A stretch of 64,000 nt of DNA from NCBI GenBank assembly GCA_964560005.1, contig CAZLKB010000003.1:40712-104711 (forward strand), in the 5' to 3' direction. Shown here piece by piece: positions 8,621-53,812 of this stretch. The position numbers were made by a program, and so were the translations under genes. Position 1 is the stretch's first letter. Each line of letters begins with the position of its first letter. The stretch comes from an uncultured Gammaproteobacteria bacterium. GTDB taxonomy: Bacteria > Patescibacteriota > Patescibacteriia > Patescibacteriales > GWC2-42-12. A model generated the notes under the pieces. It was given only the letters and a program-made list of their open reading frames with translations. It made no database searches and was not told where the DNA came from.

Positions 8621-8705
8621 AGTCCTGTAATACTAATACTGCAAATGACACGCGAATACTGCGAATTTGTAGTATTTGAATTATAATTTATTGTATTGAT
8701 TAATC

Positions 8706-9734
8706 TTAAACATTTTTTTTATTTCTGTCAAGGTAAGCAAAAAATACTACCGCCAAGAGCATCATGCCGACCAGCAAAGCCAGGGCATAAACTTTACCAA
8801 TGCTTTGCAAAAACAAGGCGCTAAAGCCGAAGATTACGGCTAGAGCGTAATATAGCAAAACCGATTTTCTGACGGTAAGGCCCAAGGTAAGCAGCCGAAA
8901 ATGCAGATGCTTCCGATCCGCGATTTTAAACGGATTCTGGCCGGCCGCCAGGCGCCGCAGTATGGTCCAAACCACATCTAAGATCGGTATGCCCATAACT
9001 AGAAGAGCTATGGCGATTTTTCCGCCGGAAATTATCGCTAGCACCCCTAAGGCGTAGCCTAAAAATAAAGAACCGCCTTCGCCCAAAAAAATACGAGCCG
9101 GATGCCAATTAAAAAATAAAAATCCCAGGCAGGCCGCGGTTAAGACCAGCGCGGCGAAACCGATATCCGGCTGATAATATTTTTGCGATAAAGTAAAAAG
9201 AAATATAATGAATGCGCCGATAGCGGTCAAGCCGGTGACCAGGCCGTCCAGACCGTCGAGCAGCTTGGTCGTATACATCATGCCTAGAAGCCAGAGAGCA
9301 ATTAAAATAGCCGAAGCCGAGCCTAAGTATAAATAACCGCCCAGCGGGTTGGTAATTTTTTCAATCTCCACTCCGCCGGCGATCAGGCTGATAACGGCTA
9401 AACAAGGAAAAATAAACTGATAAACCGGTTTTAAATTATATTTATCGTCCAGATATCCGCCGATCATTAAAAAGCAGGCGCCGATGAAAAACGAGAGCCA
9501 ATGCCTTACGAGAAGATTGCCGGTAAGTATTTTATCCTGAAAAACGAATAAAATAATAAAAAAAGCCAAAAAAACCGCCAGACCGCCGAGCAAGGGAATA
9601 TTACCTTGATGAAATTTTCTCTCTTTATCCGGCTGATCGGTAATCTTAAATTTTTTAGCTAAACGCAAAACTAAAAAAGTCAGCCCTAAGGCTAACAAAA
9701 TGGTAATAACAAAAATTTCAAAATAAAAAAGCAT
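8706..9734 (-). CDS. Polyprenyl-phosphate N-acetylhexosamine-1-phosphate transferase (WecA/TagO/MraY family, GT4)
   Basis: Polytopic membrane protein with the GGYLDDKYNL and DGLDGL motifs of the MraY/WecA family. The true mraY, with a KSGTPTMGG motif, is at 52244-53293. Confidence 0.75.
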   Translation of the reverse strand: MLFYFEIFVITILLALGLTFLVLRLAKKFKITDQPDKERKFHQGNIPLLGGLAVFLAFFIILFVFQDKILTGNLLVRHWLSFFIGACFLMIGGYLDDKYNLKPVYQFIFPCLAVISLIAGGVEIEKITNPLGGYLYLGSASAILIALWLLGMMYTTKLLDGLDGLVTGLTAIGAFIIFLFTLSQKYYQPDIGFAALVLTAACLGFLFFNWHPARIFLGEGGSLFLGYALGVLAIISGGKIAIALLVMGIPILDVVWTILRRLAAGQNPFKIADRKHLHFRLLTLGLTVRKSVLLYYALAVIFGFSALFLQSIGKVYALALLVGMMLLAVVFFAYLDRNKKNV

Positions 9735-9994
9735 AAATTATTGTTCTTATCGAACCCTTCTTTTTTTATATGCTGGTTTTCTGCCACGCTTTCCATGGCT
9801 ATCATAAATTGAAATATCTCTCTGATTATAATTTAATCTATTTTTCAAAATATTTTTTTCTACTTCGTCCACAATTTTTTCTTGATCGTCTGTAAGCTTA
9901 GAGGGGTCAGGCTGGCTAAACGGCTCTCTAATCTCATATTCTTTCTCAAGATACGAAGGCTCTCTGCTTATGTCGTTTAAATCAATTTTCTTTA

Positions 9995-10152
9995 CATTTC
10001 TTTTACACTGCTTTCCGTCAACAGGTCCTCTTTTTCCATTAAGATTTCGCTTGGATTAGGACTTGGATCAGGTACTTCTTCTATAGGTATAAACATCTTT
10101 CTTCTTGCACTATGGGGAATTTTATTCATGTTGTCTGGATCAAAAAATTTCA
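9995..10152 (-). CDS. Small ORF (52 aa); possibly the 5' part of a frameshifted gene that continues in another frame to 9741
   Basis: MKFFDPDNMNK...SVKEM stop. An adjacent, overlapping open frame with no start codon (KKIDLNDISREPSYLEKEY...KKRRVR) runs to 9741. See findings. Confidence 0.2.
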
Positions 10153-10226
10153 TAAAATTATGCGGCCTCGTCTATCAAGACATTAAACTAGTTGTTATTA
10201 ATTGAAAATTGATAATTGAAAATTAT

Positions 10227-12983
10227 TTATAGCTCTCTCCCCCGCTTGACGCTGATCTTGGCTTCGCCGTCTATTACCACCGTATCCCTTCTCTTAATGC
10301 CGTCTTTTAAAACTATATTGGCTATTTCGTTTTCAATTTTTTCTTGAAGCAGGCGCCTGAGCGGGCGGGCGCCGAATTTCGGGTCAAACCCCAGAGCGGC
10401 TAATTTCTTAATTCCGGTTTCTTCATATTCCAGGCCGATGCCCTTGGCTTCCAATAATCGGGATACTTTTTTTAACATCAATTTAGTAATGCTTTCCACA
10501 TCCCCGAGGCTCAAGGGTTTAAATACTATAACGCCGTCAAAACGGTTAATCAATTCCGGCCTGATAAATTTATTTAATTGATCATTAACCAAGGACTCTT
10601 TAATTTGTTCAAGCGGAGTTCCCTTCTTGATTTCGTCCTGAATATAGACCGCGCCGATATTGGAGGTGGCGATTATAATACTAGAGGTAAAATCAATTGT
10701 CCGCCCCTGCCCGTCGGTCAGCCGGCCGTCGTCCATTACCTGCAAAAATAAATTCAATATATCAGGATGGGCTTTTTCTATTTCATCCAATAAAATGAGG
10801 CAAAACGGCGCTTTACGCACGGCTTCGGTTAAATAGCCTAAAATACCGTCCGGCGAACCGATCATTTTTTCTAGAGATTCCGGCCGTTGATACTCGCTCA
10901 TATCCAGCCTAACCATATAGTTCTCATTGCCGAAATAAACTTCCGCTACCGTCTTGGCTAATTCGGTCTTACCCACTCCGGTCGGCCCCAGAAAAAGAAA
11001 ATTGGCTATCGGCCTCTTGGTTTCCCTTAACTCGGTTCTGGCTCGCCTTAGACTGGCCGCGACCATAGCGACGGCTTCTACCTGGCCAACCATCCGTTTA
11101 TGCATATTCTCTTCTAAATCCAGCAAAGCTCCACTCTCCTTCTCCGTAATTTTAGTCAAAGGAATTTTAGTCTTCCGGCTAATGACGCTCGCTACATCTT
11201 CGGCGTCAACTATGCTATTTACGCCTTTATTCGTTGATACTTCAACCGCGATTGATTCCAAAACATCAACCGCTTTGGCCGGTAAAAATTTATCGTGAAT
11301 ATATTTAGCGGTTAATTCCACGGCTTTAGCAATACTGTCATAAGTGAAATAGACTTTATATTTTGCTTCATAAAAACCGATCTTGCTTTCAATCATCTGA
11401 ATGGCTAAATTCATATCAGGCTCGCTGACTTCAACTTTGGCCATGGCGTCGCCCAGCGGCTTATTTTCAACATATTTGGCATAATTTTTTTCACTGACCG
11501 AGGCTAAGCAAATAAATTCGCGGCGGCTTAAGGCATTGGATAAAACTTCAGATAATTCCAGGCTTTCTTCCTGGCCCGCGGTAATACCCATTAAATTTTC
11601 AATATTGCTAATATATAAAATAATATTTCTCGCCCGCGCCACTTCGTCAATAATAACCAAGAGCCTTTCTTCGGCTTTGGCTGGAGTCGCTCCGCTTAAG
11701 AGCCGGGGAATATCCAATTCCAGCAATCTTTTGTCTTTCAGGATTTTCGGCACATCTTCTTCCACCATCGCCCGCGCCACCTGACCGATGATCATATCTT
11801 TGCCTGCGCCGTTCGGACCGTAAAGCAATACTCCGCTTCTGCCGCTTTCCAAGTTTTGAAAAATCGCCTGGACTTCTCTCTCCCTGCCGACGCATAACTC
11901 CAACCTGCCCCATTTGGCGGCCAAGGTTAAGTCGTAAGAAAAGTGATTTAAAATCGGCGTAGCCACGGCGGTATAAGCTCGGTCCATTGAGCTGGCGGGC
12001 TTAAACCGGGAAGCTCGGCGATAAAGCCGGTAATTTTCCACCAATCGCTCGCTGATAACAAACCACTGAATGACATTATTAATTTTATCCCGGTCAATGC
12101 CCAGATCATAAAGTATTTCAGTTAAATTCTGATCGCGTTTAAGGCAGGGCAAGATGAAATTAATCGGATCTACTTTCTTTTGGCCTAAAGCCTCGGCATT
12201 AATATAGCTTTCCAGGAAAATCTCTTTTAATTCCAAAGATAAGCCGGTAGAATCGGCGCCGGCTTCCAAAGATAATAGCTGATTTTTTAACTTGCTGATC
12301 AATTTATCCGGATCGGCGTTAAGGCGTGAAAATAGGGCGGCCGCCGAATTATCTCTTAAGAGGCAAAAAAATAAATGAATCGGCTTAATCTCGCGGTGCT
12401 TGGCAAAATTCGCCAAAAGAAAAGCCTGCTCTACGACTTTAAACGCGCTCAAGCTAAAACCGTTTGATACTTCAATTTTGTATTTTCCCTTGCTGCTTCT
12501 AAACTCCAGCCAGTTATTAGGCGTTAGGTTCTCAATAGCCTCTCCATATTTAATTTTTTTTATTTTTTTCTTAGACGCTTCCTCCTCGCTTAAACGATAG
12601 ATGACAAACATGTCGGCGATTAAACTCACCCAAAATATAAGAATAAAAATACTTTTAACGCGCCAAAAGGCCAAAACGGTAAAATCGCCGGTATTCAAGC
12701 TGGCTAAATAAACCCAATAAGCTAAAGCCAGTAAACCGCATAAACCGGCGGCATAAGCCAATAAATTAACCACCAGGTGCAAGCTGGTTTTTAAATGCCT
12801 TAATTTTATAATCGGACGGCTTAACTCTAAATTGCTAAAATAAAATCTATTTTGATAATAAGCGATTAAGCCGTGGCCAAAACAATTTTTACATATCAGG
12901 CCGTGATCCAATACGCCGGCGCTGTTGCAAGCGGAGCAGGTGATGAATTGAATTGAATTTTTATTTATATCTTGTTTAGGCAT
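10227..12983 (-). CDS. ClpC/ClpB-like AAA+ chaperone with N-terminal zinc ribbon and transmembrane segments; first ATPase domain degenerate
   Basis: N-terminus CSACNSAGV...CKNCFGHG plus two hydrophobic helices. Clp N-domain repeats follow. NBD1 has Walker A GPNGAGKD and no DE in Walker B (IILYISNIENL). NBD2 is canonical (GPTGVGKTELAK; LILLDEIEKAHPD). The C-terminal D2-small domain is present. Confidence 0.85.
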   Translation of the reverse strand: MPKQDINKNSIQFITCSACNSAGVLDHGLICKNCFGHGLIAYYQNRFYFSNLELSRPIIKLRHLKTSLHLVVNLLAYAAGLCGLLALAYWVYLASLNTGDFTVLAFWRVKSIFILIFWVSLIADMFVIYRLSEEEASKKKIKKIKYGEAIENLTPNNWLEFRSSKGKYKIEVSNGFSLSAFKVVEQAFLLANFAKHREIKPIHLFFCLLRDNSAAALFSRLNADPDKLISKLKNQLLSLEAGADSTGLSLELKEIFLESYINAEALGQKKVDPINFILPCLKRDQNLTEILYDLGIDRDKINNVIQWFVISERLVENYRLYRRASRFKPASSMDRAYTAVATPILNHFSYDLTLAAKWGRLELCVGREREVQAIFQNLESGRSGVLLYGPNGAGKDMIIGQVARAMVEEDVPKILKDKRLLELDIPRLLSGATPAKAEERLLVIIDEVARARNIILYISNIENLMGITAGQEESLELSEVLSNALSRREFICLASVSEKNYAKYVENKPLGDAMAKVEVSEPDMNLAIQMIESKIGFYEAKYKVYFTYDSIAKAVELTAKYIHDKFLPAKAVDVLESIAVEVSTNKGVNSIVDAEDVASVISRKTKIPLTKITEKESGALLDLEENMHKRMVGQVEAVAMVAASLRRARTELRETKRPIANFLFLGPTGVGKTELAKTVAEVYFGNENYMVRLDMSEYQRPESLEKMIGSPDGILGYLTEAVRKAPFCLILLDEIEKAHPDILNLFLQVMDDGRLTDGQGRTIDFTSSIIIATSNIGAVYIQDEIKKGTPLEQIKESLVNDQLNKFIRPELINRFDGVIVFKPLSLGDVESITKLMLKKVSRLLEAKGIGLEYEETGIKKLAALGFDPKFGARPLRRLLQEKIENEIANIVLKDGIKRRDTVVIDGEAKISVKRGREL

Positions 12984-12984
12984 T

Positions 12985-13350
12985 TTAAATTAAAAGTTGA
13001 ATAGTTATTTCATAAATAACCAAGACCGGCAACAAAACCCAAAAACAGATCGCTAAAAACGCCAGGCTAAACCAAACCAGCATAACCAGGCTTCTAAAAA
13101 TGATCTGGCCTAAACGGACAAAAAAGCTGATCAGCATCCCCTGCCAATCATATTGAGCGTACATCGGCTTAAAAATATTTTTTATCCAAACCAACAGCGC
13201 CAAAGCTTTTTGCTGGTTTATCAAAAAATTTCTTACTCCCAAAATAAATTTGACCAAGCCGCGCGAATACCACCAAACCGGGAAATAAATTATATCCCTG
13301 AATAATTCAACAATAATTTGACCGGCGTAAAAAATAAAACTATTAGACAT
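12985..13350 (-). CDS. Hypothetical integral membrane protein (121 aa), operonic with the Clp-like ATPase
   Basis: Three or four hydrophobic helices. Its stop abuts the start of the Clp-like gene. Confidence 0.5.
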   Translation of the reverse strand: MSNSFIFYAGQIIVELFRDIIYFPVWWYSRGLVKFILGVRNFLINQQKALALLVWIKNIFKPMYAQYDWQGMLISFFVRLGQIIFRSLVMLVWFSLAFLAICFWVLLPVLVIYEITIQLLI

Positions 13351-13518
13351 AAAAAATTTAAAATTTAAAAATCAAAGTTAAAAATGACAATGTAAAATTT
13401 AAAAAATTATTATATTCAAACATTTTGCATTTTTAACTGTCATTTTGCATTTTGAGATTTTAACTTTACAATTTTATTATACCATATTCCCCTTTTTTGC
13501 ACCAAGCGCCGGCGAGCC

Positions 13519-13547
13519 TTGACAGTTAATTGGATATTGTGTAATAT
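13519..13547 (+). promoter_or_regulatory. Sigma70-type promoter for secE-nusG (TTGACA-N17-TAATAT)
   Basis: ttgaca at 13519-13524, a 17-nt spacer, and taatat at 13542-13547. It lies inside the ORF-track N-terminal extension of secE, which argues for the 13656 start. Confidence 0.55.
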
Positions 13548-13655
13548 ATAAACATCAATCAATAACACCCGCCAGGGTTGTTTTTTAATAAAACTAACCT
13601 GCCTTTCACCGCTTTAAAAATCCGGGGCGCGGGAAATAAATATAACCTATCAAAT

Positions 13656-13871
13656 ATGGAAAATGAAACTAAATCCAACGGCGTAAATAAAATCATCACC
13701 TACATTAAGGCGTCAATTGAAGAGATGAAAAAGGTTACTTGGCCGACCAAGAAAGAAACCTATAATTATACCCTGCTGGTAATTTTTATCAGTATTGGCG
13801 TGGCTCTATTCTTGGGACTCCTGGATATTATTTTCACCAAGGGTCTGGAATATTTAATTATCAATAAATAG
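13656..13871 (+). CDS. secE: Preprotein translocase subunit SecE
   Basis: C-terminal EEMKKVTWPTKKETYNYTLLVIFISIGVALFLGLLD is the SecE TM signature, directly upstream of nusG. The ORF-track start at 13578 is probably an artefact; the start used here is the Met at 13656. Confidence 0.8.
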   Translation: MENETKSNGVNKIITYIKASIEEMKKVTWPTKKETYNYTLLVIFISIGVALFLGLLDIIFTKGLEYLIINK

Positions 13872-13907
13872 CCTAATTTTAATTATTATTAGCTTTGAAT
13901 TATTCAT

Positions 13908-14453
13908 ATGGCAAAACAAATATTAAATCAAGGCCGGCGCTGGTATGTGCTCCATACTTATTCGGGTTACGAAGAGAATGTTTCGCAGAATTTAAAGCAA
14001 AGGATTGAATCCATGGACATGGAAGACAAAATTTTTAATATTCTTATTCCTACGGAAAAAAAGATTAAAATAAAAAACGGCAAACGGAAAATAGTTGAAG
14101 AAAAAATTTTCCCCGGCTATGTTTTAGTGGAGATGATCGTCACCGATGATTCTTGGTATGTGGTCAGAAATACGCCGAATGTAACCGGCTTCGTCGGCAC
14201 CGGCACGGTTCCGACTCCGATCGCTGAAAATGAAATTAAAGATCTGCAAAAACGGATGGGTGTGGAAGAGCCGAAATTTAAAATTGATGTGTCAATTAAT
14301 TCGCCGGCGCGCATTATTGACGGCCCCTTTAAGAATTTAGAGGGCAAAGTTGTGGAAATTGACGAGGCTAAGGGCAAAATTAAAGTTTCAGTTTCCATGT
14401 TCGGCCGCGAAACCCCGGTGGAGCTGGATTTTTTACAAATTAAAAAGATTTAA
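13908..14453 (+). CDS. nusG: Transcription termination/antitermination factor NusG
   Basis: NGN domain (RWYVLHTYSGYEENV) and C-terminal KOW domain (FKNLEGKVVEIDEAKGKIKVSVSMFGR). Confidence 0.95.
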   Translation: MAKQILNQGRRWYVLHTYSGYEENVSQNLKQRIESMDMEDKIFNILIPTEKKIKIKNGKRKIVEEKIFPGYVLVEMIVTDDSWYVVRNTPNVTGFVGTGTVPTPIAENEIKDLQKRMGVEEPKFKIDVSINSPARIIDGPFKNLEGKVVEIDEAKGKIKVSVSMFGRETPVELDFLQIKKI

Positions 14454-14576
14454 CCCTACAAATCAACAAATCCATTACAAATATACAAATTAGGCTTCTT
14501 ATATTTGTAAATTTGTAGCAAAATTTGTAAATTTGTGGGTATATAAAGATGATATAATCACTAAACTAATTAAGGT

Positions 14577-14996
14577 ATGAAAAAAATATTAACTAAAGTG
14601 AAACTGCAAATCCCGGCCGGCCAAGCCAATCCCGCTCCTCCGGTAGGACCGGCCTTAGGCCAGCACGGCTTGAATATCTCGCAATTCTGCCAGGCATTTA
14701 ATGAAAAAACCAAGGCTAAAATGGGCGATATCACACCGGTAGAAATAACCATCTACGAAGACCGAACTTACACATTTATTTTAAAGACCCCGCCGGCCGC
14801 GGAATTAATCAAAAAATACGCTAAAATTCCTAAAGGTTCGGGCAAGCCGCTGGCCGAAAAAGTCGGTAGTATTACTAAAGCTCAACTGAAAGAAATTGCT
14901 GAAATCAAAATGCCGGACCTGAATGCGCATGATATTGAAGCGGCTATGAGAATCGTCGCCGGCACCGCACGGCAAATGGGAGTGGAGATTAAGTAG
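14577..14996 (+). CDS. rplK: 50S ribosomal protein L11
   Basis: [26 protein letters not shown] matches the bL11 signature. Confidence 0.95.
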
Positions 14997-15118
14997 TTGA
15001 AAATTAAAAAATCAAAATGTAAAATTACAGTTTAAAATGCAAAGTTTAAATTTATAAATTTTAAATTTTACATTGTCATTTTTAACTTTAATTTTTGCAT
15101 TTTACATTAATAACTAAT
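14997..15118. repeat. Family A palindromic AT-rich intergenic element (aaaatgtaaaat/gacaatg type) between rplK and rplA
   Basis: aaaatcaaaatgtaaaattacagtttaaaatgcaaag...aaattttacattgtcatttttaactttaatttttgcattttacatt has imperfect inverted symmetry. One of at least seven copies in the window. Confidence 0.7.
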
Positions 15119-15164
15119 TTGTGGAAGCTCTGAATCAAAGAGCGATATTACCACGAAATAAATT

Positions 15165-15881
15165 ATGAAAAAAGAATCAGTGACCGCAAAGGCTGCAGCG
15201 GACAAAAAAAAGCAGAACAACAAGGTGGAGACAACGGAATATGACCGAAGTAAAGCTTATCCGATCGCCGAAGCCATTGAATTGACTAAGAAGCTTTCTA
15301 AAACCAAGTTTGATGCTTCGGTGGAAGTTCACTTTAAACTGGGTATTGACATTAAAAAGGGCGAACAGCAGGTCAGAGTGGCCGTTCCCCTGCCCCACGG
15401 CACGGGTAAGACCATAAAAGTCGCCGCTTTCGTAACTCAGGCTAAAGAAAAAGAAGTGCGCGAAGCCGGTGCCGATTTAGTCGGCAGCGAAGAATTGATC
15501 GCTGAGATCAAAAAAACCGAAAAGACTAATTTTCAGGTGGCGGTGGCCGAGCCGGCTATGATGAAAAACCTGGGACAAATCGCTAAAATCCTAGGCACCC
15601 GCGGACTGATGCCTTCGCCCAAGAACGATACCGTAACTACCGACCCGGCTAAAGCTGTCCGAGAGCTTAAAAAAGGAAAAGTCAGCTTAAAGAATGACGA
15701 TACCGGAAATGTCCATGTAGCCATCGGCAAAGTCTCCTTTGACAGCCAAAAATTAATTCAAAATTTCGATGTTTTATTGGATGCCGTTAGAAAAGCCAAG
15801 CCGTCCAGCTCCAAAGGAATTTACTTAAAAAATATCACGATTTGCTCAACTATGGGACCGGGTATAAGAGTGGCGATCTAA
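15165..15881 (+). CDS. rplA: 50S ribosomal protein L1
   Basis: Full-length uL1 pattern (KFDASVEVHFKLGIDIKKGEQQVRVAVPLPHGTGK). Confidence 0.95.
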   Translation: MKKESVTAKAAADKKKQNNKVETTEYDRSKAYPIAEAIELTKKLSKTKFDASVEVHFKLGIDIKKGEQQVRVAVPLPHGTGKTIKVAAFVTQAKEKEVREAGADLVGSEELIAEIKKTEKTNFQVAVAEPAMMKNLGQIAKILGTRGLMPSPKNDTVTTDPAKAVRELKKGKVSLKNDDTGNVHVAIGKVSFDSQKLIQNFDVLLDAVRKAKPSSSKGIYLKNITICSTMGPGIRVAI

Positions 15882-15915
15882 AATATCATAAATCACAACC
15901 CGTAACCCGTAACGC

Positions 15916-15945
15916 AAAACACCAGGCTGACTCGCCTGGTGTTTT
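15916..15945 (+). terminator. Rho-independent terminator after rplA
   Basis: aaaacaccaggc-tgactcg-cctggtgtttt hairpin with a T run. Confidence 0.7.
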
Positions 15946-16030
15946 GTTTAGTCATTAAGCTACTGTTGACTTTTTAAAATAGTAGAGTTAACCTTTATAT
16001 TAAAGGATTGAACCAAGCAAAAAATAAAAA

Positions 16031-16213
16031 ATGAAAACGCCAGTTGTAAATCGAAAAAAACTGCCCGGCCCGGACGAAGAAATGACAGGAGGGGGCAAGT
16101 GGAATACCACCGGTTCAAAACCCAAGCTGGTTGAAAAGCCGAAACCGCCTGTGATCAGGCCAATGACCGGATCCACATGGAAAGTCGGAAACGGCCAAAG
16201 CCAGGAATGCTAA
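16031..16213 (+). CDS. Small basic Pro/Lys-rich hypothetical protein (60 aa)
   Basis: First of four tandem same-strand small ORFs, each starting MK, in a visibly GC-richer island. Confidence 0.3.
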   Translation: MKTPVVNRKKLPGPDEEMTGGGKWNTTGSKPKLVEKPKPPVIRPMTGSTWKVGNGQSQEC

Positions 16214-16232
16214 AAACAAAAAATGAAAAAAG

Positions 16233-16400
16233 ATAAAAAAAGAACCGACATAAGGCGGAAAAACGCCGCAACCGCTCGCGCCCGAAACGGCCGCAGGCCG
16301 CGCCATAAAGGCCTTCCGACTATCCGCGCTCTTACAACCGTCAGAGCGAAGCTAATAATTTGCGGGCAAGATATTCGCATCCTGATCGTCTGGTAGATTA
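16233..16400 (+). CDS. Small Arg-rich hypothetical protein (55 aa)
   Basis: MKKDKKRTDIRRKNAATARARNGRRPRHKGLPTIRALTTVRAKL.... Not in the ORF track (under 60 aa). Second of the tandem series. Confidence 0.25.
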
Positions 16401-16429
16401 ACAATTGTCAAAAATCGGATCAAAAAAGC

Positions 16430-16603
16430 ATGAAAAATCGTCCTTTCAAACCAATACATCTGCCAAACAAAAATCCATTGGCGCGTGAACCTAAGAAGGA
16501 CCCACGCAAAAATTCCATCACACTAAAACATCCGGAAAAACAACGCTGGGCTTTTCTAAAGAGGGACGGGAAAAGGCCTGTCGGCTTTAAACCAGCTCTC
16601 TAA
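16430..16603 (+). CDS. Small basic hypothetical protein (57 aa)
   Basis: MKNRPFKPIHLPNKNPLAREPKKDPRKNSITLKHPEKQRWAFLKRDGKRPVGFKPAL. Third of the tandem series. Confidence 0.25.
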   Translation: MKNRPFKPIHLPNKNPLAREPKKDPRKNSITLKHPEKQRWAFLKRDGKRPVGFKPAL

Positions 16604-16642
16604 ACGCGTAACATCCGGTCATAAAAACAACACCTGAAAAAT

Positions 16643-16849
16643 ATGAAAGAGAAGCATTATTCTAGAGAGGATAGAAAGCATCGCGGAGCCCATAACTGTT
16701 GGTCATGCCGCTGTGGCCTTACCAATGGGCAAATCAGTAGGGGGGAACATTACTGCGCTAATTGCAAACCAAAGGCACTGTCAACGATGATAACAGATCA
16801 AAGATTCGGCACTTCAGCGAACAACTACTTCCTCCAACCCCGCGTGTAA
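16643..16849 (+). CDS. Small zinc-ribbon protein (68 aa; CxxC...CxxC)
   Basis: CWSCRCG ... HYCANC. The ORF ends inside a strong terminator hairpin. Confidence 0.45.
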   Translation: MKEKHYSREDRKHRGAHNCWSCRCGLTNGQISRGEHYCANCKPKALSTMITDQRFGTSANNYFLQPRV

Positions 16850-16875
16850 TTCCAAGAAGCACGCGGGGATTTTTT
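16838..16875 (+). terminator. Rho-independent terminator
   Basis: ccccgcgtg-taattccaagaag-cacgcgggg followed by ttttttt. Confidence 0.75.
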
Positions 16876-16958
16876 TATCCGCCATAATTTTATGTAATCA
16901 AAAATCCGGACATTGTCAGTCCGGCTTTTTTAATTTGATTTGATTTTCCAATTGCCGT

Positions 16959-17618: not shown

Positions 17619-17652
17619 ATTATTATAAAAATTTTCCGGACAGTCGGCGTTT

Positions 17653-18132: not shown

Positions 18133-18234
18133 GCTGGAGCGACTGAAAGGAGCGATAGCATCTTGTTCTTACTATTTCCTGCAAGATTCTATCGCTTCGC
18201 TCCAGAATGACATAATGTATTATAAATTATTTAA

Positions 18235-23308: not shown

Positions 23309-23360
23309 ATAAATATAATTTGTAGTATTTGAAATTAATTTGTAGTATTCGCATTATGCA

Positions 23361-25971: not shown

Positions 25972-26083
25972 AATGTAAATCTCAAAATGTAAAATAACAA
26001 TGCAAAGTGTAAAATTACTTCTTAAGACATTTTGCATTTTAAACTGTCATTTTCAATTTTGATTTTTACATTTTACATTATCT
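25962..26083. repeat. Family A palindromic AT-rich intergenic element
   Basis: aaaatgtaaatctcaaaatgtaaaataacaatgcaaagtgtaaaatt...cattttgcattttaaactgtcattttcaattttgatttttacattttacatt. Confidence 0.7.
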
Positions 26084-35673: not shown

Positions 35674-35675
35674 AA

Positions 35676-35790
35676 AAATTAAAAATGTAAAATGTAAATC
35701 TCAAAATGACAATGTAAAATTTAAAATTATTAAATTAATAAATTTACATTTTGAACTGTCATTTTTCATTTTGATTTTTACATTTTACAT
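35676..35790. repeat. Family A palindromic AT-rich intergenic element between miaB and dnaJ
   Basis: aaaatgtaaaatgtaaatctcaaaatgacaatgtaaaatttaaaatt...tttacattttgaactgtcatttttcattttgatttttacattttacattt. Confidence 0.7.
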
Positions 35791-35794
35791 TTTT

Positions 35795-37110: not shown

Positions 37111-37166
37111 CCCGCTTAACGCCCGCACGATTTCCATCAATTTGGCGATCAGGCGGGCTTTTTTTA
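37111..37166 (+). terminator. Candidate terminator (gcccgc ... gcgggc stem plus T run)
   Basis: gcccgcacgatttccatcaatttggcgatcaggcgggc followed by ttttttt. The long loop makes this uncertain. Confidence 0.4.
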
Positions 37167-37200
37167 TTCGCTAAATTCGTTATAAATCAGCCCCTATTCG

Positions 37201-37809
37201 CTATTTACTTCTTTTCCGTAAACTCCCCTTCAATCGGTCCTTGATCCTTTTTCTTATTTCTTCAGTAAATACTCGCTTGGAGATTTCAGTATAAAATTTA
37301 TTATTTTTGATTCTAAAATCGCACATTGATGCCCGGCCGGCTTTATAATATTTTAAATCGGCTTCAAACTGTTCCTTGAAAGAATCGGATAAAGCATCGG
37401 CATCAATTAAAATTCTTTTATTTATCTCTCTAGGGTTAGTGAATTTATGCGCCTTTATTATCTCGGCAACTTTCTTAATTTTTCTCGGTTCATAATTAAG
37501 TTCGCGCAAAACTTTAGCCGCGATTATGGCTGAATATTTAAGATGCAATTTTAACGCCTTAATTCTATCTTTTTTGTCTTGGCTTTTCTGCAACTTCTTA
37601 GAAACCTTGCTCCAGCCGATGTCATGTAAAATTGCCGCCGGTATAAGCAGACTTTCGTCGCCTATGCCAGACTTAATTATTATTTCCATGGCCTTAACCA
37701 CGCCCTTAACATGCGTAAGATCTTTTTCTCTTCCGGCTTTTATGTAAGGCAGAGCTAATTTCCAGATTTTTTGGTATTGTTTGTCCATTTTTTTATTTAG
37801 TCGCGACAA
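37201..37809 (-). CDS. HD-domain phosphohydrolase
   Basis: H...HD motif (LLIPAAILHDIGWSK). The C-terminal 15 codons are encoded by a 44-bp copy of the dnaK 3' end read in another frame. Confidence 0.75.
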   Translation of the reverse strand: MSRLNKKMDKQYQKIWKLALPYIKAGREKDLTHVKGVVKAMEIIIKSGIGDESLLIPAAILHDIGWSKVSKKLQKSQDKKDRIKALKLHLKYSAIIAAKVLRELNYEPRKIKKVAEIIKAHKFTNPREINKRILIDADALSDSFKEQFEADLKYYKAGRASMCDFRIKNNKFYTEISKRVFTEEIRKRIKDRLKGSLRKRSK

Positions 37810-40971: not shown

Positions 40972-41020
40972 AAAGCTATAAATTAATTCGTAATTCTTAA
41001 TTCGTAATTGGTAATTAATT

Positions 41021-41452: not shown

Positions 41453-41510
41453 ATATTTGTTCTCCTTCCCCGCTCAAACTATATTCCAAAGCTTGAGCGA
41501 TAATTATATT

Positions 41511-41660
41511 ATAATTTAAAATGTAAATCTCAAAATGTAAAATGACAGTTGAAAATGCAAAATGTCTAAATTAATAATTTTAAACTTTACATTGTCATTG
41601 CTCTGCAATGACCCCGCATCTGCGGGGTGCTAGCGGAGCTAGCATTTTACATTTTGATTT
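41511..41660. repeat. Family A palindromic element carrying an inserted GC-rich hairpin, between grpE and hsp20
   Basis: aaaatgtaaatctcaaaatgtaaaatgacagttgaaaatgcaaaatg...actttacattgtcatt plus ctctgcaatgaccccgcatctgcggggtgctagcggagctagc. Confidence 0.65.
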
Positions 41661-41661
41661 T

Positions 41662-43297: not shown

Positions 43298-43326
43298 ATT
43301 ATATAAAACATTAGCACTCCTGTCAA
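43298..43326 (-). promoter_or_regulatory. Sigma70 promoter of the hrcA operon (TTGACA-N17-TATAAT on the minus strand) overlapping CIRCE
   Basis: Minus-strand -35 ttgaca (complement of 43321-43326) and -10 tataat (complement of 43298-43303), 17-nt spacer. Confidence 0.55.
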
Positions 43327-43337
43327 GAGAGTGCTAA
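43311..43337. promoter_or_regulatory. CIRCE operator (HrcA binding site), perfect inverted repeat
   Basis: TTAGCACTC-CTGTCAAGA-GAGTGCTAA matches the CIRCE consensus TTAGCACTC-N9-GAGTGCTAA exactly. Confidence 0.85.
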
Positions 43338-45763: not shown

Positions 45764-45955
45764 ATTTCTACAAATCTACAAATTAGCTCACAAATATCAC
45801 AAATAAAATTTTTTGCATTATTTGTGATATTCGTGAATTGATTTACCTGCCTGTCCGGCTCGCTTATCCGGAGAGTAAGCCAGCCTCGCCGAGTCTAGGC
45901 GGGCGAGGCGGGCAGTTAAATTTGTGAATAATTAAATGAATAAATCTAAATAATC

Positions 45956-46525: not shown

Positions 46526-46640
46526 CGTTAATTCGCTATAAATTCGCGATTAATTTGCTTTGTTTATCTTAACAAAAAACTAACAAAAAAGCCACTTGCC
46601 TTAAGTGGCTAAATTTTTATTGTCAAAGACTGCTAGAGTT

Positions 46641-48325: not shown

Positions 48326-49099
48326 TTATTTTACTCCGCAATGATCGCAGTCATCAAAATCAATTTTCGGAATCACGCTTAATAAAAGTTTTAAAACATT
48401 GCTGGAGTTATCTTTCATCACCTGCATGATCGCCTGCCAGGTAACACCCTCTTCGCCTTCCCGCCAGGCATCATAGTCGGTTGCCATCGCCACGCTGGCA
48501 TAACAAATACCCAGTTCTCGGGCCAGAATTACTTCGGGTACGGTTGACATGTTTATTATGTCTGCTCCCATTTGCTTAAAAAAGCGGCTTTCCGCCCGGG
48601 TAGAAAATCTCGGCCCTTCAATGGTAATCACTGTTCCGGTTTGGTGATATGAAAGACCCAGCCCCCCGGCTGATTCAATCAAAATCTGCCGCAAACCTGG
48701 GCAAAAAGGATCGGCCATGGCGGTATGCACTACTTTGTCCTCAAAAAAAGTCAGGTTGCGGTGTTTGGTAAAATCTATAAACTGATCCAAAATTATAAAA
48801 TCCCGAGGCTTAATATCCTCCCTGAGAGACCCGCAGGCCGTAGTGGCTAAAATATGCGTGCAGCCGATTTCCTTTAAAGCCCAAATATTGGCTCGATAAG
48901 GCACCTTGGTCGGCATAATAGTGTGGTTTAGCCCGTGCCGCGCCAATACTACAACATCAACGCCGTTTATCTCCCCGCTAATTAATGGCGCCGAGGTGGC
49001 GCCGAACGGCGTTTCTACTTTTTTTTCTTTAGCCTTTTTTATGATTTCCGGGTTATCAATCCCGCTGCCGCCGATAATAGCGATTTTGATTTTACCCAT
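48326..49099 (-). CDS. mtnP: S-methyl-5'-thioadenosine phosphorylase / purine nucleoside phosphorylase
   Basis: MGKIKIAIIGGSG..., GADIINMSTVPEV, PNP/MTAP family. The ORF-track N-terminal extension to 49204 is judged spurious because it runs through an inverted repeat. Confidence 0.85.
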   Translation of the reverse strand: MGKIKIAIIGGSGIDNPEIIKKAKEKKVETPFGATSAPLISGEINGVDVVVLARHGLNHTIMPTKVPYRANIWALKEIGCTHILATTACGSLREDIKPRDFIILDQFIDFTKHRNLTFFEDKVVHTAMADPFCPGLRQILIESAGGLGLSYHQTGTVITIEGPRFSTRAESRFFKQMGADIINMSTVPEVILARELGICYASVAMATDYDAWREGEEGVTWQAIMQVMKDNSSNVLKLLLSVIPKIDFDDCDHCGVK

Positions 49100-49248
49100 A
49101 TATTTTTCTATAATTATACTTAAATTTACCCACAAATCTACAAATCGGCTACGAATACTACAAATATTTATTCGCGGCATTCGCATATATTTGCAGATTA
49201 GCATTATATCATTCGTAATATTTGTAGCCGATTTGTAGATTTGTGGGA

Positions 49249-49776
49249 TTATTCCGATTCATACTCCACCAAACTTCTCACCTCAATCCCCTGCTCTTTA
49301 ATTTTTTTTGACCCGCCTAAAAACGGCAAATCAATCAAAAAGCTTACTCCTAAAATATCTCCGCCCAGCCTTTCTATTAAATCGCAAGCGGCCAAGGCCG
49401 TGCCGCCGGTAGCGCACAAGTCGTCAATTAAAATAATGCTTTCGCCCGGCTTAATGGCATCATCATGAATTGCCACTATATTAGAATCATACTCATAGGT
49501 GTACTCCTTTTCTATCGTTTTGGAAGGCAACTTGCCCTTTTTACGAACAATAGCCAGCCCGGCGCCTAATTTATATGCAATCGGCGCGGCCAAAAGGAAA
49601 CCGCGTGCGTCTATACCAACCACTTTATCAATTTTTTGCCCAGCGTACGGTGCGGCTAATTGATCAACCGCCTGCCTGAAAGCCTGACCGTCTTCCAGTA
49701 AAGTCGTAATATCTTTAAAATTAATTCCCGGCTTCGGCCAATCCGATATTTCCCTGATTTTAGATTTTATATCCAT
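49249..49776 (-). CDS. apt: Adenine phosphoribosyltransferase
   Basis: PRPP-binding motif ILLIDDLCATGGT. Confidence 0.9.
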   Translation of the reverse strand: MDIKSKIREISDWPKPGINFKDITTLLEDGQAFRQAVDQLAAPYAGQKIDKVVGIDARGFLLAAPIAYKLGAGLAIVRKKGKLPSKTIEKEYTYEYDSNIVAIHDDAIKPGESIILIDDLCATGGTALAACDLIERLGGDILGVSFLIDLPFLGGSKKIKEQGIEVRSLVEYESE

Positions 49777-49793
49777 AAAATTCCATTAATAAT

Positions 49794-50927
49794 TTATTCC
49801 AACATTTTCAAAATAATTCTTACCATATCCCGGTTCGCTCCTTCCTTTATCACCCGCCCCATCTTTTCTCCCAGCTTTTTCTGCAAGTCTTTATTATTAA
49901 TCAAATTTTTTATCTCCGTAACAAATATTTCAGAGGTTAAGTCTTTCTGTTCTAACACTATGGCCGCGCCTTTAAACATAGCCGCATTCTCTTCCTGGTG
50001 CGACTCCGGCATGGGGATAATTATGGCCGGCTTTTTTAAATATGACAATTCGGATAAAACTCCCAGCCCGGCGCGCGTCACGACTACTTCGGCTAATTTA
50101 AGCGCCTTTGCCATTTGCTCCGTTTCTAAAAATTCGTATTGCGCGTAATTTTTTATCTCTAATCTCTCATCTCTACTCTCCTTACCTTTTCCTGTAACAT
50201 GAATAATCTGGCAAATCTTGGTCAACTCCCCAAAGCTCTGTTCCACTAACCGGTTAATTGCCATCGCTCCTGTTCCCCCGCCAACGATTAAGACAACGGG
50301 CAAACTTTTGTCTATTTTATTAAATTGAAAATTGAAAATTGAAAATTGAAAATTTTTCCTAATGGGGTTTCCGGTCCAAACCGCTTTTTTGCCGTAGTCA
50401 CGCATTGATTTTTCAAAAGTTACGGTTATAATCTTAGCAAAAGGCGCCATTAATTTATTGGCCAAGCCTGGCCGGACATCTTGCTGATGGATTAAAACCG
50501 GTACGCGCAAAAGCCAGGCCGCCCAAACCACCGGCACACTGACGAAACTACCCGCGCTCATCACCATGTCCGGCCGCCACTTTAGCATTATGAAAAGAGC
50601 TTGAAAAAAACCTAGTTTAATTTTAAAAATATCCACTAAATTATTTAAAGAAAAATACCGGCGCCATTTTCCGCCGCTAATCGCCTTGAATTTTATTCCT
50701 TCTTTTTCCACCATTACTTTCTCCACTCCGAATTTAGTGCCCAGCCATAAAAATTCGTAACCCCCCGCGCCCTCTCTTCTGCCCCCTTGATAAAGAGCCT
50801 GTCCCGCACTTGATGCGGGAGGGTTAGGGGGATTTTTCATTTCATCATAAATAGCCAAGAGCGGCGCCACCGACCCACCCGTACCGCCTCCGGAAAAAAG
50901 AATTTTGTAAGTTTTTTCATTATTCAT
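49794..50927 (-). CDS. murG: UDP-GlcNAc:lipid I GlcNAc transferase MurG with two repeat-encoded segments
   Basis: GGTGGSVAPLLA N-terminus, GT28 N and C domains. The PPNPPASSAGQALYQGGRREGAGG insertion (GC-rich element 50761-50835) and the NFQFSIFNFQF interdomain linker ((AATTTTC)n, 50324-50355) are both in frame. Confidence 0.9.
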   Translation of the reverse strand: MNNEKTYKILFSGGGTGGSVAPLLAIYDEMKNPPNPPASSAGQALYQGGRREGAGGYEFLWLGTKFGVEKVMVEKEGIKFKAISGGKWRRYFSLNNLVDIFKIKLGFFQALFIMLKWRPDMVMSAGSFVSVPVVWAAWLLRVPVLIHQQDVRPGLANKLMAPFAKIITVTFEKSMRDYGKKAVWTGNPIRKNFQFSIFNFQFNKIDKSLPVVLIVGGGTGAMAINRLVEQSFGELTKICQIIHVTGKGKESRDERLEIKNYAQYEFLETEQMAKALKLAEVVVTRAGLGVLSELSYLKKPAIIIPMPESHQEENAAMFKGAAIVLEQKDLTSEIFVTEIKNLINNKDLQKKLGEKMGRVIKEGANRDMVRIILKMLE

Positions 50928-50937
50928 AATTCATGTT

Positions 50938-52107
50938 TCATGACTTCATCTGCTTACTAATATTCGCCAATATTCCGATAGAGGCTAGGGCTGCCAGCAT
51001 GGCCGATCCGCCGTAGCTGACCATCGGGAGCGGCACGCCGGTCATAGGCATAATATTAACCATGCCGCCGATATTTATCAAGGCTTGGATTGTGATCCAA
51101 GAAACAATGCCCACAGCTAAAATCTTGCCGAAATCGTCAGGCGCTCGTTTAGCGATAATCACGCCTCTGGAAAACAATGCCAAAAATAATAAAATTAAGC
51201 CGGTAGAAAAAATAAAACCGGTCTCCTCGCTGATAATTGGAAAAATGGCGTCGTTCTGCGCCTGCGGCAGGTAGGAAAATTTTTGTCTGGAAGCGCCCAG
51301 TCCCCGGCCCCAAAAACCGCCGGAACCGACCGCGATCAAGGATTGATTAACTTGATAACAAATTTCTTGTTTGGAAAAAGACGGATTCAGCATACATTTA
51401 AACCGGTTGGCCTGATAAGGGTAAATATTGGTCATGATGGTTAACCCGGCCAATCCCAATAAAATCAAAGCTACCAAGTGCTTGATACTGCCGCCGCCGA
51501 TAAAATAAACTATCAGCGACGCCAAGGCGATTATTGTCAATGTTCCCATATCCGGCTGAAGTATCATCAACAGAGCGATTACACCTAAAATAACCACGAA
51601 CGGGCCGATGCCTTCAGAAAAATCGGCTAATTTCTTTTTCCTGCCCTCCAGCCAGGCGGCCAGATAAATTAAAAAGGTTATTTTTACAAATTCGGACGGC
51701 TGTAAAGAATAGCCGAAAACATTTATCCAGCTTCGGGAAGTCCCCCAGGTACCGGCGAGCCCGGGGATGAAAACTAAAAGAAGCAGACCGATTGAAGCGA
51801 CCAGCATCAACAGCCCGTATTTTTGCCAAAAATGATAATCAACTTTTGAAAAAAACCAAAAGGCGCAAAGACCCAATATCAAGCCGAAGAGCTGATGTTT
51901 TACCAAGTAATAACTATCGTCATAGGTATTATAGGCTATAACCGACGAAGCGCTAGAAAGCATAATGATGCCGAAAACAATAATAACTCCGACGATAACC
52001 AGCAGTTTTTTATCCGATTCGCCGTATTTATCGCTGGAACTTAATATTCTTTTAAACCAATTAATCGCCGATGTCATATCAAAAAATGTAAAATATAAAT
52101 TTCGCAT
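50938..52107 (-). CDS. ftsW: SEDS family peptidoglycan glycosyltransferase FtsW/RodA
   Basis: Ten-TM SEDS pattern with the conserved PQAQNDAIFPIISEETGF and MPMTGVPLPMVSYGGS motifs. Position between mraY and murG. Confidence 0.85.
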   Translation of the reverse strand: MRNLYFTFFDMTSAINWFKRILSSSDKYGESDKKLLVIVGVIIVFGIIMLSSASSVIAYNTYDDSYYLVKHQLFGLILGLCAFWFFSKVDYHFWQKYGLLMLVASIGLLLLVFIPGLAGTWGTSRSWINVFGYSLQPSEFVKITFLIYLAAWLEGRKKKLADFSEGIGPFVVILGVIALLMILQPDMGTLTIIALASLIVYFIGGGSIKHLVALILLGLAGLTIMTNIYPYQANRFKCMLNPSFSKQEICYQVNQSLIAVGSGGFWGRGLGASRQKFSYLPQAQNDAIFPIISEETGFIFSTGLILLFLALFSRGVIIAKRAPDDFGKILAVGIVSWITIQALINIGGMVNIMPMTGVPLPMVSYGGSAMLAALASIGILANISKQMKS

Positions 52108-52243
52108 TAATTTTCAAATCACAATTTCCAATTTTCAATGAATTTACAATGATTAAATTTTCAAACGAAAAAATTTTTCATTGTAAATTAATCCATTGAA
52201 ATTTCATTGAAAATTGGCGCTTGAAAATTGAAAATTATTCTAT

Positions 52244-53293
52244 TTACAGGTGTCTATCCAATAAAAACACAATCAAGCCGATAGCCGCGCTGATGCCGGC
52301 GATTACCCAAAAACGCATGACGATTTTTGCTTCCGGCCAGCCGATGGCCTCAAAATGATGATGAATCGGCGAAGAAATAAATATTTTTTTGCCTCTGATT
52401 TTTTTAGATAGCTGCTGTAAGATAAAAGACAGCGACTCAATGACAAAAACCAAGCCGATGATCGGCAAAATCAAAGCTGAATTGGTCAGCATGGCGATTA
52501 CTCCCAAAGTTATGCCCAGGCTCATGGCTCCGGTATCACCCATAAAGAAACGCGCCGGCGTAATATTAAACCATAAAAAAGCCAACAGCGCTCCGACAAT
52601 AACGCCGCAGAAAGTGGCTAAATCATATTTGCCAGTTGAAAAAGCGATCACGCCGAAAGCGGCAAAGCATAAAAGCAAGACGCCGCCCGCCAAGCCGTCT
52701 AAACCGTCGGTTTCATTGACCGAAAAGGCGGTGGAAACCAAGACCAGGATAAAAATTAAAATATACGGCCAGCCTAATTGAAAATCTCCCATAAAGGGCA
52801 CATGAAAAATATCCCAATCCAATTTAAAGTAAAACCACCAGGCGCCAATGGCGGCAATAATCGTGTAAATCATCAAACGATGCTTAATCCTTAAGCCGCC
52901 GCCGCCTAAAATACCCTTGCCTTTAATATCCAGCCAGTCATCAAACAGGCCGATCAAGGCCGTGGCCACTAAGACACCCAACGGCAAGAGCGTCTGGCTC
53001 CTGGATAAAAAATTTAATTGTTTAAAAATATCAAAAGGTAAAAAATTGGCTAAATAATAAAATAGCAAAGCAAAGATCAATACCGTCAGCCAGACTAATA
53101 TACCGCCCATGGTCGGCGTACCGCTCTTATGGGCATGCAATTTCGTATAAACCGGGGTGCTGCCGCTGGCTCTAATCTGCTTGCCCATTTTATATTTATA
53201 TAAATAATGGGTTAAGAGCGGCGTCCAAAGCAGGGCGAAAATAAAGGCCGAGGCCGAAAGCAGTAAAATTTTAATGATGTAAAAATCAAACAT
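52244..53293 (-). CDS. mraY: Phospho-N-acetylmuramoyl-pentapeptide transferase MraY
   Basis: KSGTPTMGG, NETDGLDGLAGG and HHHFE motifs. Confidence 0.95.
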   Translation of the reverse strand: MFDFYIIKILLLSASAFIFALLWTPLLTHYLYKYKMGKQIRASGSTPVYTKLHAHKSGTPTMGGILVWLTVLIFALLFYYLANFLPFDIFKQLNFLSRSQTLLPLGVLVATALIGLFDDWLDIKGKGILGGGGLRIKHRLMIYTIIAAIGAWWFYFKLDWDIFHVPFMGDFQLGWPYILIFILVLVSTAFSVNETDGLDGLAGGVLLLCFAAFGVIAFSTGKYDLATFCGVIVGALLAFLWFNITPARFFMGDTGAMSLGITLGVIAMLTNSALILPIIGLVFVIESLSFILQQLSKKIRGKKIFISSPIHHHFEAIGWPEAKIVMRFWVIAGISAAIGLIVFLLDRHL

Positions 53294-53398
53294 ATTAACG
53301 CGAATTAATAACGAATTAAATGCGAATTATCACGAATTTTATATAATTATAATTTTTTTATCACCTATAATTCGCTTTGAATTCGCGATCTATTCGCT

Positions 53399-53812
53399 TT
53401 ACCTGAAATTAATTAAATAAATAGAAACCGTACTGGCAATTAAAAATAAATTTATAAGCAAAGAAGATCCGAGAATCAAATGAACTAACAATTTGCTTTT
53501 CCGGTAAGTATTCAGCAATAAAAGAAAATTTAATATAATAAAAGACAGGCCCAGGGCGGGTATGATATAAATATTAGCAACATTGCCGATTAAATTTACG
53601 CCCAAGTTCACATTATAATGCAAAACTACCAAGTTCTGACTGACATTTCTGTTTACATAATAGACGAATAGCCAGTTGGCGATATTTAAAACGAACAGCA
53701 ATATAAGATATAAGCGCACAGCCTTAAGGCTGATCAAAGATAAAACAGACTCGGCCAGCTTGTCGCGGCCGAAATTAAAATGGCTCAATAGCTTATTCCA
53801 ATCAATCACCAT
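53399..53812 (-). CDS. Hypothetical integral membrane protein (137 aa)
   Basis: Four hydrophobic helices; no family recognised. Confidence 0.4.
   Translation of the reverse strand: MVIDWNKLLSHFNFGRDKLAESVLSLISLKAVRLYLILLFVLNIANWLFVYYVNRNVSQNLVVLHYNVNLGVNLIGNVANIYIIPALGLSFIILNFLLLLNTYRKSKLLVHLILGSSLLINLFLIASTVSIYLINFR

Follow-up and report, generated by a model that had tools for sequence, protein, structure and literature searches.

Miniature inverted-repeat transposable elements (MITEs), such as the Correia/NEMIS elements of Neisseria, the ERIC/IRU elements of enterobacteria and the Rickettsia palindromic elements, are non-coding sequences of 70-150 nt with terminal inverted repeats. They are found as many dispersed copies, lie within transcribed operons, are present or absent at given sites in related genomes, and some copies carry outward promoter-like sequences. 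In a 64-kb stretch of bacterial DNA (contig CAZLKB010000003.1, referred to as the window) we identified a family of intergenic palindromes, named Family B, which shows similarity to MITEs in all of these respects. Unlike in the known MITEs, each terminal repeat of Family B consists of four tandem words of 7-8 nt in a 2+2 layout, the elements fit almost exactly between a stop and the next start, one architecture is common to several word families, and the host is a bacterium of the Candidate Phyla Radiation (CPR).

Other described systems resemble Family B in part. REP/BIME elements are abundant extragenic palindromic repeats in inverted pairs which are mobilised by RAYT (Y1 HUH) transposases, and REPs are single G+C-rich hairpins of 20-40 nt with one GTAG head. 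Family B shares with them the abundance, the inverted pairs and a recurring GTAG/GTGG tetranucleotide (ATTTGTAG, ATTTGTGG), but was rejected as a REP/BIME family: its arms are A+T-rich tandem words without a hairpin of their own, and no RAYT/Y1 transposase gene is present in the window. Heptad-type operators bound by ribbon-helix-helix (RHH) proteins include the metboxes of MetJ. In the parS sites of pSM19035, which involve omega and ParB, the heptad repeats are contiguous and four of them are the functional minimum (PMC9499535). Family B resembles RHH operators in having 7-8 bp words, direct and inverted, near gene starts. These operators have few sites per replicon, one word and a known binder, whereas Family B, for which no binder is known, probably has hundreds of sites in a genome, and its words are spaced 8/12/8 instead of being contiguous. 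The STRR heptanucleotide repeats of heterocystous cyanobacteria and the heptameric simple sequence repeats of Xanthomonas and Nostoc are also intergenic, clade-abundant tandem repeats of a 7-nt unit, but STRR form longer one-directional arrays of G/C-containing heptamers, unlike the paired inverted four-word arms found here (PMC4692102). TIGR arrays of the TIGR-Tas systems consist of 5-15 units of 36 nt with two alternating repeats and variable 9-nt spacers, located beside a Tas gene with a Nop domain (PMC12045711). Short repeats (8-12 nt), a periodicity of about 9 nt, difficult detection and occurrence in CPR genomes are common to TIGR arrays and Family B (PMC12045711). A TIGR array was nevertheless rejected, as Family B has a single word, no variable spacers and 4+4 copies in inverted, dispersed arms, and the window holds no Nop gene. 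Literature searches gave no description of such word-built elements in CPR bacteria.

The basic unit of Family B is the word ATTYGYR (7-8 bases). Its A, T, T and G do not vary in any word of the 17 arms from eight genomes that were aligned (alignment A2). An arm is composed of four words in the 2+2 layout and is 33-38 nt long, with start-to-start distances of 8-9, 11-12 and 7-9 nt; its consensus in A2 is ATTYGTnn ATTYGTn, a linker of 3-4 nt, and ATTYGTnG ATTYGY. Variants of this layout are a 9/11/9 spacing, an 11-nt period (AATTCGCnnnn, upstream of mraY) and contiguous heptamers (ATTCGTA). Because the word spacings differ by 1 nt, a pattern search with fixed spacing found a single site. The full element consists of two inverted arms around a variable centre and forms an intergenic palindrome of 70-125 nt without coding capacity. 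The stems contain 22-33% G+C, and the arms are 80-92% complementary, as in the terminal inverted repeats of a MITE-like element. All 17 paired arrays are oriented outward (left arm CRAAT, right arm ATTYG, on both strands) and none inward. The elements fill the whole spacer, reaching from a stop codon to about 4-15 nt ahead of the next ATG; their hairpins begin 0-2 nt past the stop and end 0-16 nt ahead of the ATG.

The window was placed in a Falkowbacteria-like group of Parcubacteria through its PBP2 and NusG relatives. Its nearest genomes show 80-82% identity for PBP2 and 94% for NusG, and PBP2 scans of genomes and metagenomes found no relative above 82%. Arrays, defined as at least three words ATT[TC]G[TC] spaced 7-14 nt, were counted in the window plus 41 related loci and in 1.66 Mb of non-redundant related sequence (related loci and genomes carry numbers with L). 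The first sample contained 33 arrays compared to 0.3 after local block shuffling, and the second contained 62. One array is found about every 4-8 kb, both in the window and in the L003/L121 genome. Short spacers make up 7.9% of the window length, which was the basis for expected word numbers. The exact word ATTTGTAG or its complement CTACAAAT occurs 11 times in the window, each time within a short spacer (0.9 expected); ATTTGT lies in spacers in 27 of 53 cases (4.2 expected) and ATTCGC in 13 of 47 (3.7 expected). CTACAAA was counted 11 times compared to 0.71 in dinucleotide-shuffled spacers, and the 13-mer TTTGTRGTATTCG with at most two mismatches had 12 sites, against 3.8 ± 2.2 in shuffled sequence, a number reached in none of 100 shuffles. 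The 8-mer with one mismatch was not enriched window-wide (61 observed, 74 expected), which places the signal in the exact words and their clustering.

A preliminary description of this DNA had reported a recurring word set in front of unrelated operons and judged it not to be due to chance. Every string quoted there was found in place, and the word set is non-random, strictly intergenic and adjacent to gene boundaries, also in front of unrelated operons. The unit is not one conserved 14-mer, as had been described, but the ATTYGYR word, in tandem repeats of 7-11 nt that form inverted arms; the 14-mer corresponds to an adjacent word pair (e.g. words 1-2 or 3-4) of the 9/11/9 variant. The location upstream of genes holds for several operons, where the words lie near gene 5' ends and three sites are conserved across species, but unpaired arrays face gene stops equally often. 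The earlier observation is thus confirmed, and its interpretation is partly supported: right in part, wrong in kind.

Family B is a dispersed multi-copy family in this Falkowbacteria-like clade of Parcubacteria, and related genomes have gained and lost copies of it. The spacer ahead of mraY is 105 nt long in the window, where it holds an element, and 4-14 nt in L005, L006, L011 and L014; the mraY-ftsW spacer, with a different word family, is 136 nt compared to 6-20 nt in four relatives. Upstream of clpB, L121 carries a 118-nt Family B palindrome, whereas stop and start codons are separated by one base in the window (TAA-a-ATG) and abut in L126 (TAA-ATG). Conversely, the spacer between murG and a phosphoribosyltransferase gene is 310 nt in L003, with a GCGAAT palindrome, and 17 nt in the window. 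At mtnP a Family B copy is present in the window only; L030, L003 and L010 hold unrelated GC-rich hairpins in the orthologous spacer. About nine Family B sites are present in 36 kb of the L003/L121 genome, and two paralogues in L121, together with a copy in L008, differ in their centres but have almost identical arms (alignment A3). Other hairpin elements are nested within Family B palindromes, and members of other palindromic families are cleanly present in one genome and absent from another at 93% identity. As most Family B sites are absent from the orthologous spacers of close relatives, they cannot be ancestral promoters or operators of those genes. Recurrent upstream words should not be taken as regulator sites before orthologous spacers have been compared.

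Terminal inverted repeats, a small non-coding size, dispersed copies and presence/absence at orthologous sites were all found for Family B, and judging from the sequences its members are, with slightly better than even confidence, MITE-like non-autonomous insertion elements. The four-word arms would be the terminal inverted repeats and putative arrays of binding sites for a protein that moves or maintains the elements, and survival would be limited to insertions in the tiny stop/start spacers of a compact genome. A minority of copies, those at mrdA, rplK and mraY, persist across species and probably now serve the host in expressing the gene that follows; this is proposed because the gene-proximal arm at mrdA is preferentially preserved. 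The weak outward promoter-like sequence TTGTAG-17-TAGATT may have offered a route for co-option.

Several observations weigh against MITE-like elements. Family B copies were found present or absent only in comparisons of species with PBP2 identities of about 80%, and no polymorphism was seen between near-identical strains, because no relative in the collections searched exceeds 82% PBP2 identity. Unlike for MITEs, no target duplication has been found for Family B, nor a cognate transposase in the window and the arm pairs of the 1.66 Mb. No target-site duplication could be defined: the flanks of the copies at 14454, at 49129 and at clpB in L121 give no consistent direct repeat, although a duplication of TA or TTA is possible, and the clpB junction in L121 leaves five unexplained bases. 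No transposase, other mobilising gene, Nop/Tas or similar gene is present among the window genes. An autonomous element with the same ends was not found among the window genes or the arm pairs in the 1.66 Mb, in which no open reading frame (ORF) is flanked by outward arms; the outward arm pairs that lie 0.25-4 kb apart enclose only ordinary genes (mreD, RarA-like and genes of the mraY region). The exclusive outward polarity could reflect mere common descent. The nusG-rplK stem has one to five words per arm depending on the genome, which suggests that arms can also lengthen or shorten in place by slippage; the centre motif of this site is similar in L122, the window and L121 and absent from L128. 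Finally, unpaired proximal arms are perfectly kept at about 80% protein identity in L002 and L046, which is hard to reconcile with dead selfish DNA and points to a function at the level of the host.

Three Family B sites, those at mrdA, rplK and mraY, are common to several species. The mrdA arrays are found in seven species, and the most complete form is a compact eight-word palindrome in L047. The gene-proximal arm retains all four words in the window, L002, L046 and L047, whereas L030, L003 and L049 retain three. The distal arm, which is interrupted by insertions, retains two words in the window, one in L002, three in L046 and L049, four in L047 and none in L030 and L003; more distant relatives have no array. 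The rplK palindrome is common to the window, L121 and L128; a form with a single word, accompanied by the compensatory pair CAGAT/ATCTG, occurs in L122. An orthologous copy of the mraY palindrome is present in L046. The asymmetric preservation of arms at about 80% protein identity argues that the proximal arms, at the least, are of importance for the gene that follows.

The four words of an arm are equally conserved, which fits repeated equivalent contacts better than a pair of -35 and -10 elements. This raises the question whether the elements are operator or architectural arrays in which an oligomeric DNA-binding protein would place one subunit on every ATTYG word, in the manner of RHH proteins coating tandem 7-8 bp repeats, and which would serve genome-wide as regulatory or nucleoid-organising sites. 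For omega on pSM19035 parS, a 7-8 bp period and at least four repeats, direct or inverted, are documented (PMC9499535), and both the conservation of arrays upstream of mrdA, rplK and mraY and their high density agree with such a function. However, no candidate binding protein was identified, at least four unrelated word sets (AAAATGT, TTTTCAA, AATTTTT, GGGATT) share the architecture, so that more than one such protein would be needed, relatives lack most of the sites in their orthologous spacers, and unpaired arrays are randomly oriented relative to genes. We regard this explanation, which corresponds to the global-regulator site of the preliminary description and which no test result specifically favours, as rather unlikely. 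A somewhat different possibility, which we also consider unlikely, is that Family B and its sister families form a clade-wide system instead of junk DNA, with arms that serve a Parcubacteria-specific oligomeric DNA-binding protein or act as portable promoter or insulator cassettes. Expression would then be re-wired at the stop/start junctions of essential operons in ultra-small genomes that largely lack Shine-Dalgarno sequences, and the arms would gain or lose whole words without giving up their symmetry.

The shared promoter architecture proposed earlier would correspond to sigma-70-type promoters, with word 1 as -35 element (TTGTAG/TTGTAA), the junction of words 3 and 4 as -10 element (TAGATT/TAAATT) and the linker of 3-5 nt setting a spacing of 17-18 nt, so that transcripts would begin just ahead of the ATG. 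Four gene-proximal arms have the form TTGTRR-17/18-TA[AG]ATT, namely TTGTAA-17-TAAATT at rplK, TTGTAG-17-TAGATT at mtnP, TTGTGA-18-TAGATT-9-ATG at mrdA and TTGTAA-17-TAGATT-12-ATG at mrdA of L030. The arms of the sister Family A contain [CT]TGTCA-17-TACATT with the ATG 10-11 nt downstream in all four abutting genes, the elements avoid convergent spacers, and most genes have no Shine-Dalgarno sequence. On the other hand, the best match to the sigma-70 consensus (TTGTAG-17-TAGATT) is 7 of 12 positions and no Family B arm was flagged by a consensus scan, while canonical TTGACA-17-TATAAT promoters do exist in the clade. L002 and L046 carry TTGATT at the -10 position, without the key A, and ATTCG arrays give only TAATTC. 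The two arms do not differ in geometry, and unpaired arrays face a gene start in 14 cases and a gene stop in 15. A profile of 136 genes anchored at the start codon showed no positioned -10 element, and the fixed distance to a -10 element that was to be checked was not found; a register of -12 from the ATG corresponds to an 8-nt word plus the spacer of about 4 nt at empty orthologous sites. Sigma-70-type promoters are quite unlikely. A Bacteroidetes-type promoter (TTTG-N19-21-TAnnTTTG), which by eye fits the rplK and mrdA arms, was rejected since it fails in L002 and L046 (TTGATTTG) and in all ATTCG arrays. The 136 gene starts of the window and close relatives mostly have no Shine-Dalgarno sequence; T stands at position -1 in 79% of them, and A predominates from -2 to -6. 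MraZ operators, WalR/PhoP-type direct-repeat operators and DNA-uptake sequences were also considered; no word arrays were found upstream of mraZ, and the words are absent from coding DNA.

It is very doubtful that the palindromes act as RNA hairpins in a polycistronic transcript, be it as terminator or attenuator, as RNase III processing or stability element, or as a stem joining stop and start for translational coupling. Their hairpins are very stable (z down to -12.9) and extend from just past the stop codon to just ahead of the ATG, and the nusG-rplK stems differ completely between genomes, with the compensatory pair in L122. When palindromes were detected in a strand-symmetric way, however, wobble-compatible mismatches were equally frequent on the sense (47) and antisense (46) strand, so that selection on the sense transcript is not apparent. 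An initial excess of G.U pairs and a lower energy on the sense strand were discarded as evidence for selection at the RNA level, as they were an artefact of detecting the hairpins on that strand. Palindromes also lie in divergent spacers and beside a tRNA, and several conserved copies have no distal arm and cannot fold. A+T-rich palindromes occupy 41 of about 303 tandem, 6 of 36 divergent and 1 of 36 convergent spacers, the last being an ordinary canonical terminator; this distribution is the opposite of what is expected for terminators. Intrinsic terminators were rejected as well, because the stems are not G+C-rich and are not followed by a T-run; canonical terminators are separate, and a terminator scan listed only the rplU site, at the minimum of three G-C pairs. 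No Rfam family matched: in the window only two tRNAs reached the gathering threshold, and for 14380-15200 just spurious microRNA-hairpin matches with E up to 5 were obtained.

A non-functional by-product of mutation, in which A+T-rich spacers would expand through slippage of 7-8 nt units and through template switching that makes and symmetrises palindromes, without transposition, agrees with the one to five words per arm at one orthologous site, the many word sets of the same architecture and the palindromes of different words in orthologous spacers, but is highly improbable in view of the same 2+2 layout with near-identical arms at non-orthologous loci and in different genomes, the 118-nt element within a spacer of 0-1 nt and arms that are far better conserved than the centres.

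Genomes of CPR bacteria (Patescibacteria) are usually called minimal and streamlined, yet core operons of the window hold long palindromes, namely ybaB-recR, nusG-rplK-rplA, the dcw cluster, hrcA-grpE-dnaK and pilB-pilC. Such dense elements that actively turn over bear on the expression of genes without Shine-Dalgarno sequence that are separated by 100-nt hairpins, and on the fragmentation of CPR assemblies. They also raise the question which trans-acting protein recognises four tandem 8-mers. The only public contig encoding the exact L11 protein of the window genome, L001 (Logan SRR12133403, 972 nt), is identical to the window and terminates within a Family A palindrome, consistent with palindromes breaking short-read assemblies.

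The eight Family B sites of the 64-kb window, one doubtful member and the Family A palindromes are listed in Table 1. The neighbouring genes are all housekeeping genes, mostly in classical operons. The rplK palindrome has the termini CCCTAC...GTGGG. The motif GCTTCT(AC) is found in or beside the nusG-rplK hairpin loop in most genomes (14492-14502 in the window; L121, L122, L123, L126, L127, L130 and L131) and persists even where stem sequences have nothing in common. The conserved helix GTGGGAG...CGCTCGCACCAC ahead of rplA may be an L1-binding leader. The mtnP palindrome has 37-nt arms that are 92% complementary, termini CCCAC...GTGGG and ATTCGC/ATTTGC words in its centre. The mtnP ORF (48326-49204) overlaps it, but as the Pfam match starts at residue 40, the true start is probably near 49100 and the palindrome intergenic. 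At mraY the last word ends 6 nt ahead of the ATG. The array at 23325-23352 had been described as upstream of an anti-sigma/extracytoplasmic function (ECF) sigma region, but at its full extent it lies downstream of the ECF sigma gene, with the words pointing into its 3' end. The words beside the mreD-like start lie downstream of a canonical terminator (46590-46610) and read GCGAAT on the sense strand, in opposite orientation.

Table 1. Family B sites and Family A palindromes in the window (z, z score of the fold).
Feature	Position	Strand	Remarks
Palindrome, nusG stop to rplK	14454..14540		z -6.2 (14454-14541); orthologous copies in L121, L128
Left arm of rplK element	14455-14491		Four CAAAT words
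Centre of rplK element, TAGGCTTCT	14492-14502		Between the arms
Right arm of rplK element	14503-14539		Words ATTTGTAA ATTTGTAG caaa ATTTGTAA ATTTGTGGG
Palindrome, phosphoribosyltransferase stop to mtnP	49129..49247		z -12.9 (49127-49249)
Partly decayed palindrome upstream of mrdA	45766..45846		z -5.3; mrdA ATG 45763, minus strand
Proximal four-word arm at mrdA	45768-45806	Minus-strand reading	ATTTGTGAT ATTTGTGAGCTA ATTTGTAG ATTTGTAG aaat ATG
Distal arm at mrdA	45818-45845		Two words remain
GCGAAT/ATTCGC palindrome filling the spacer upstream of mraY	53296..53401		11-nt word period; z -3.7 (53294-53402)
Imperfect palindrome upstream of rplU	8626..8685	TTTGCAGTATTAG, TTCGCAGTATTCG minus; TTTGTAGTATTTG plus	Sense-strand z -1.4, no significant fold
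Unpaired four-word array, ECF sigma gene stop to next ORF	23318..23352	+	ATTTGTAGT ATTTGAAatta ATTTGTAGT ATTCGCA; spacing 9/11/9; no significant hairpin (z -0.8)
Three words ATTCGC, ATTCGC, ATTTGC beside mreD-like start	46531..46558	+	11-nt spacing
Heptamer array ATTCGTA ATTCTTA ATTCGTA ATTGGTA	40986..41013	+	49-nt spacer, hsp20 to next gene; absent from the preliminary description
Loose ATTCGC / ATTCGT / ATTCGC words after terminator-like hairpin	37166..37201	+	Doubtful Family B member
Family A palindromes	4364-4491, 6633-6737, 13351-13470, 14997-15105, 25972-26083, 35674-35794, 41510-41660		AAAATGT/ACATTTT words

Palindromes are frequent in the window: of the 29 spacers that measure 70-260 nt, about half (16) have a fold z score under -3. 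Besides Family A with seven copies, word families of the same architecture are those with AATTTTT and TTGAAAAT words, and G+C-rich nested palindromes are present as well. The same classes are found in close relatives and not in more distant ones. Nearly every Family A arm has the form [CT]TGTCA-N17-TACATT; the four abutting genes with the ATG 10-11 nt past the hexamer are all protein genes, and the 5' end of tRNA-Thr lies 5-6 nt past a Family A TACATT. By their sequence the Family A arms look like outward promoters that would yield near-leaderless transcripts. The grpE-hsp20 spacer (41453-41661 in the window, with orthologues in L002-L016) is a hotspot, and insertions are nested in some of the copies there. 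The spacer is occupied by Family A in the window, L003 and L016 (conserved AAAATCAAAAT..AAAATGACAATG), by TTTTCAA-type palindromes in L002, L030 and L008, and by the G+C-rich palindromes GTCATTGCGAG..CTCGCAATGAC in L005, L006 and L014. The same long hairpin, GGAATTAGTAATTTT...AAAATTACTAATTCC, is nested in Family B palindromes at L002:2500-2620 and L046:880-1060, and these two loci in two genomes suggest that it targets such palindromes. In L006 (14115-14200 and 14891-14981) the element TTACCCCGTTAGAAG...CTTCTAATGGGGTG has landed precisely on a start codon, for which it provides a new ATG followed by six codons (MKTSNGV-/MQTSNGV-); it is absent from L007, which is 93% identical.

An exact CIRCE operator (TTAGCACTC-N9-GAGTGCTAA) is located at 43311-43337, upstream of hrcA-grpE, and is also found in relatives, with TTGACA in the loop and TATAAT downstream. 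A perfect TTGACA-16-TATAAT consensus lies on the minus strand at 8172-8145, in a convergent spacer with no annotated same-strand gene downstream. Two long stretches, 3203-3890 and 15882-16958, contain no credible ORFs and had no Rfam match at the gathering threshold; the former is G+C-rich with many helices. At 4491-4633, beside a Family A element, two pieces of the tRNA-Lys gene region are duplicated, namely its first 21 nt (GTGCGTCGTGCTGGAATCGAA) and its anticodon-arm segment, with about 42 extra nt between them. This stretch, which was called by neither ARAGORN nor Rfam, could represent either an att-like remnant or a tRNA-like gene that carries an insertion.

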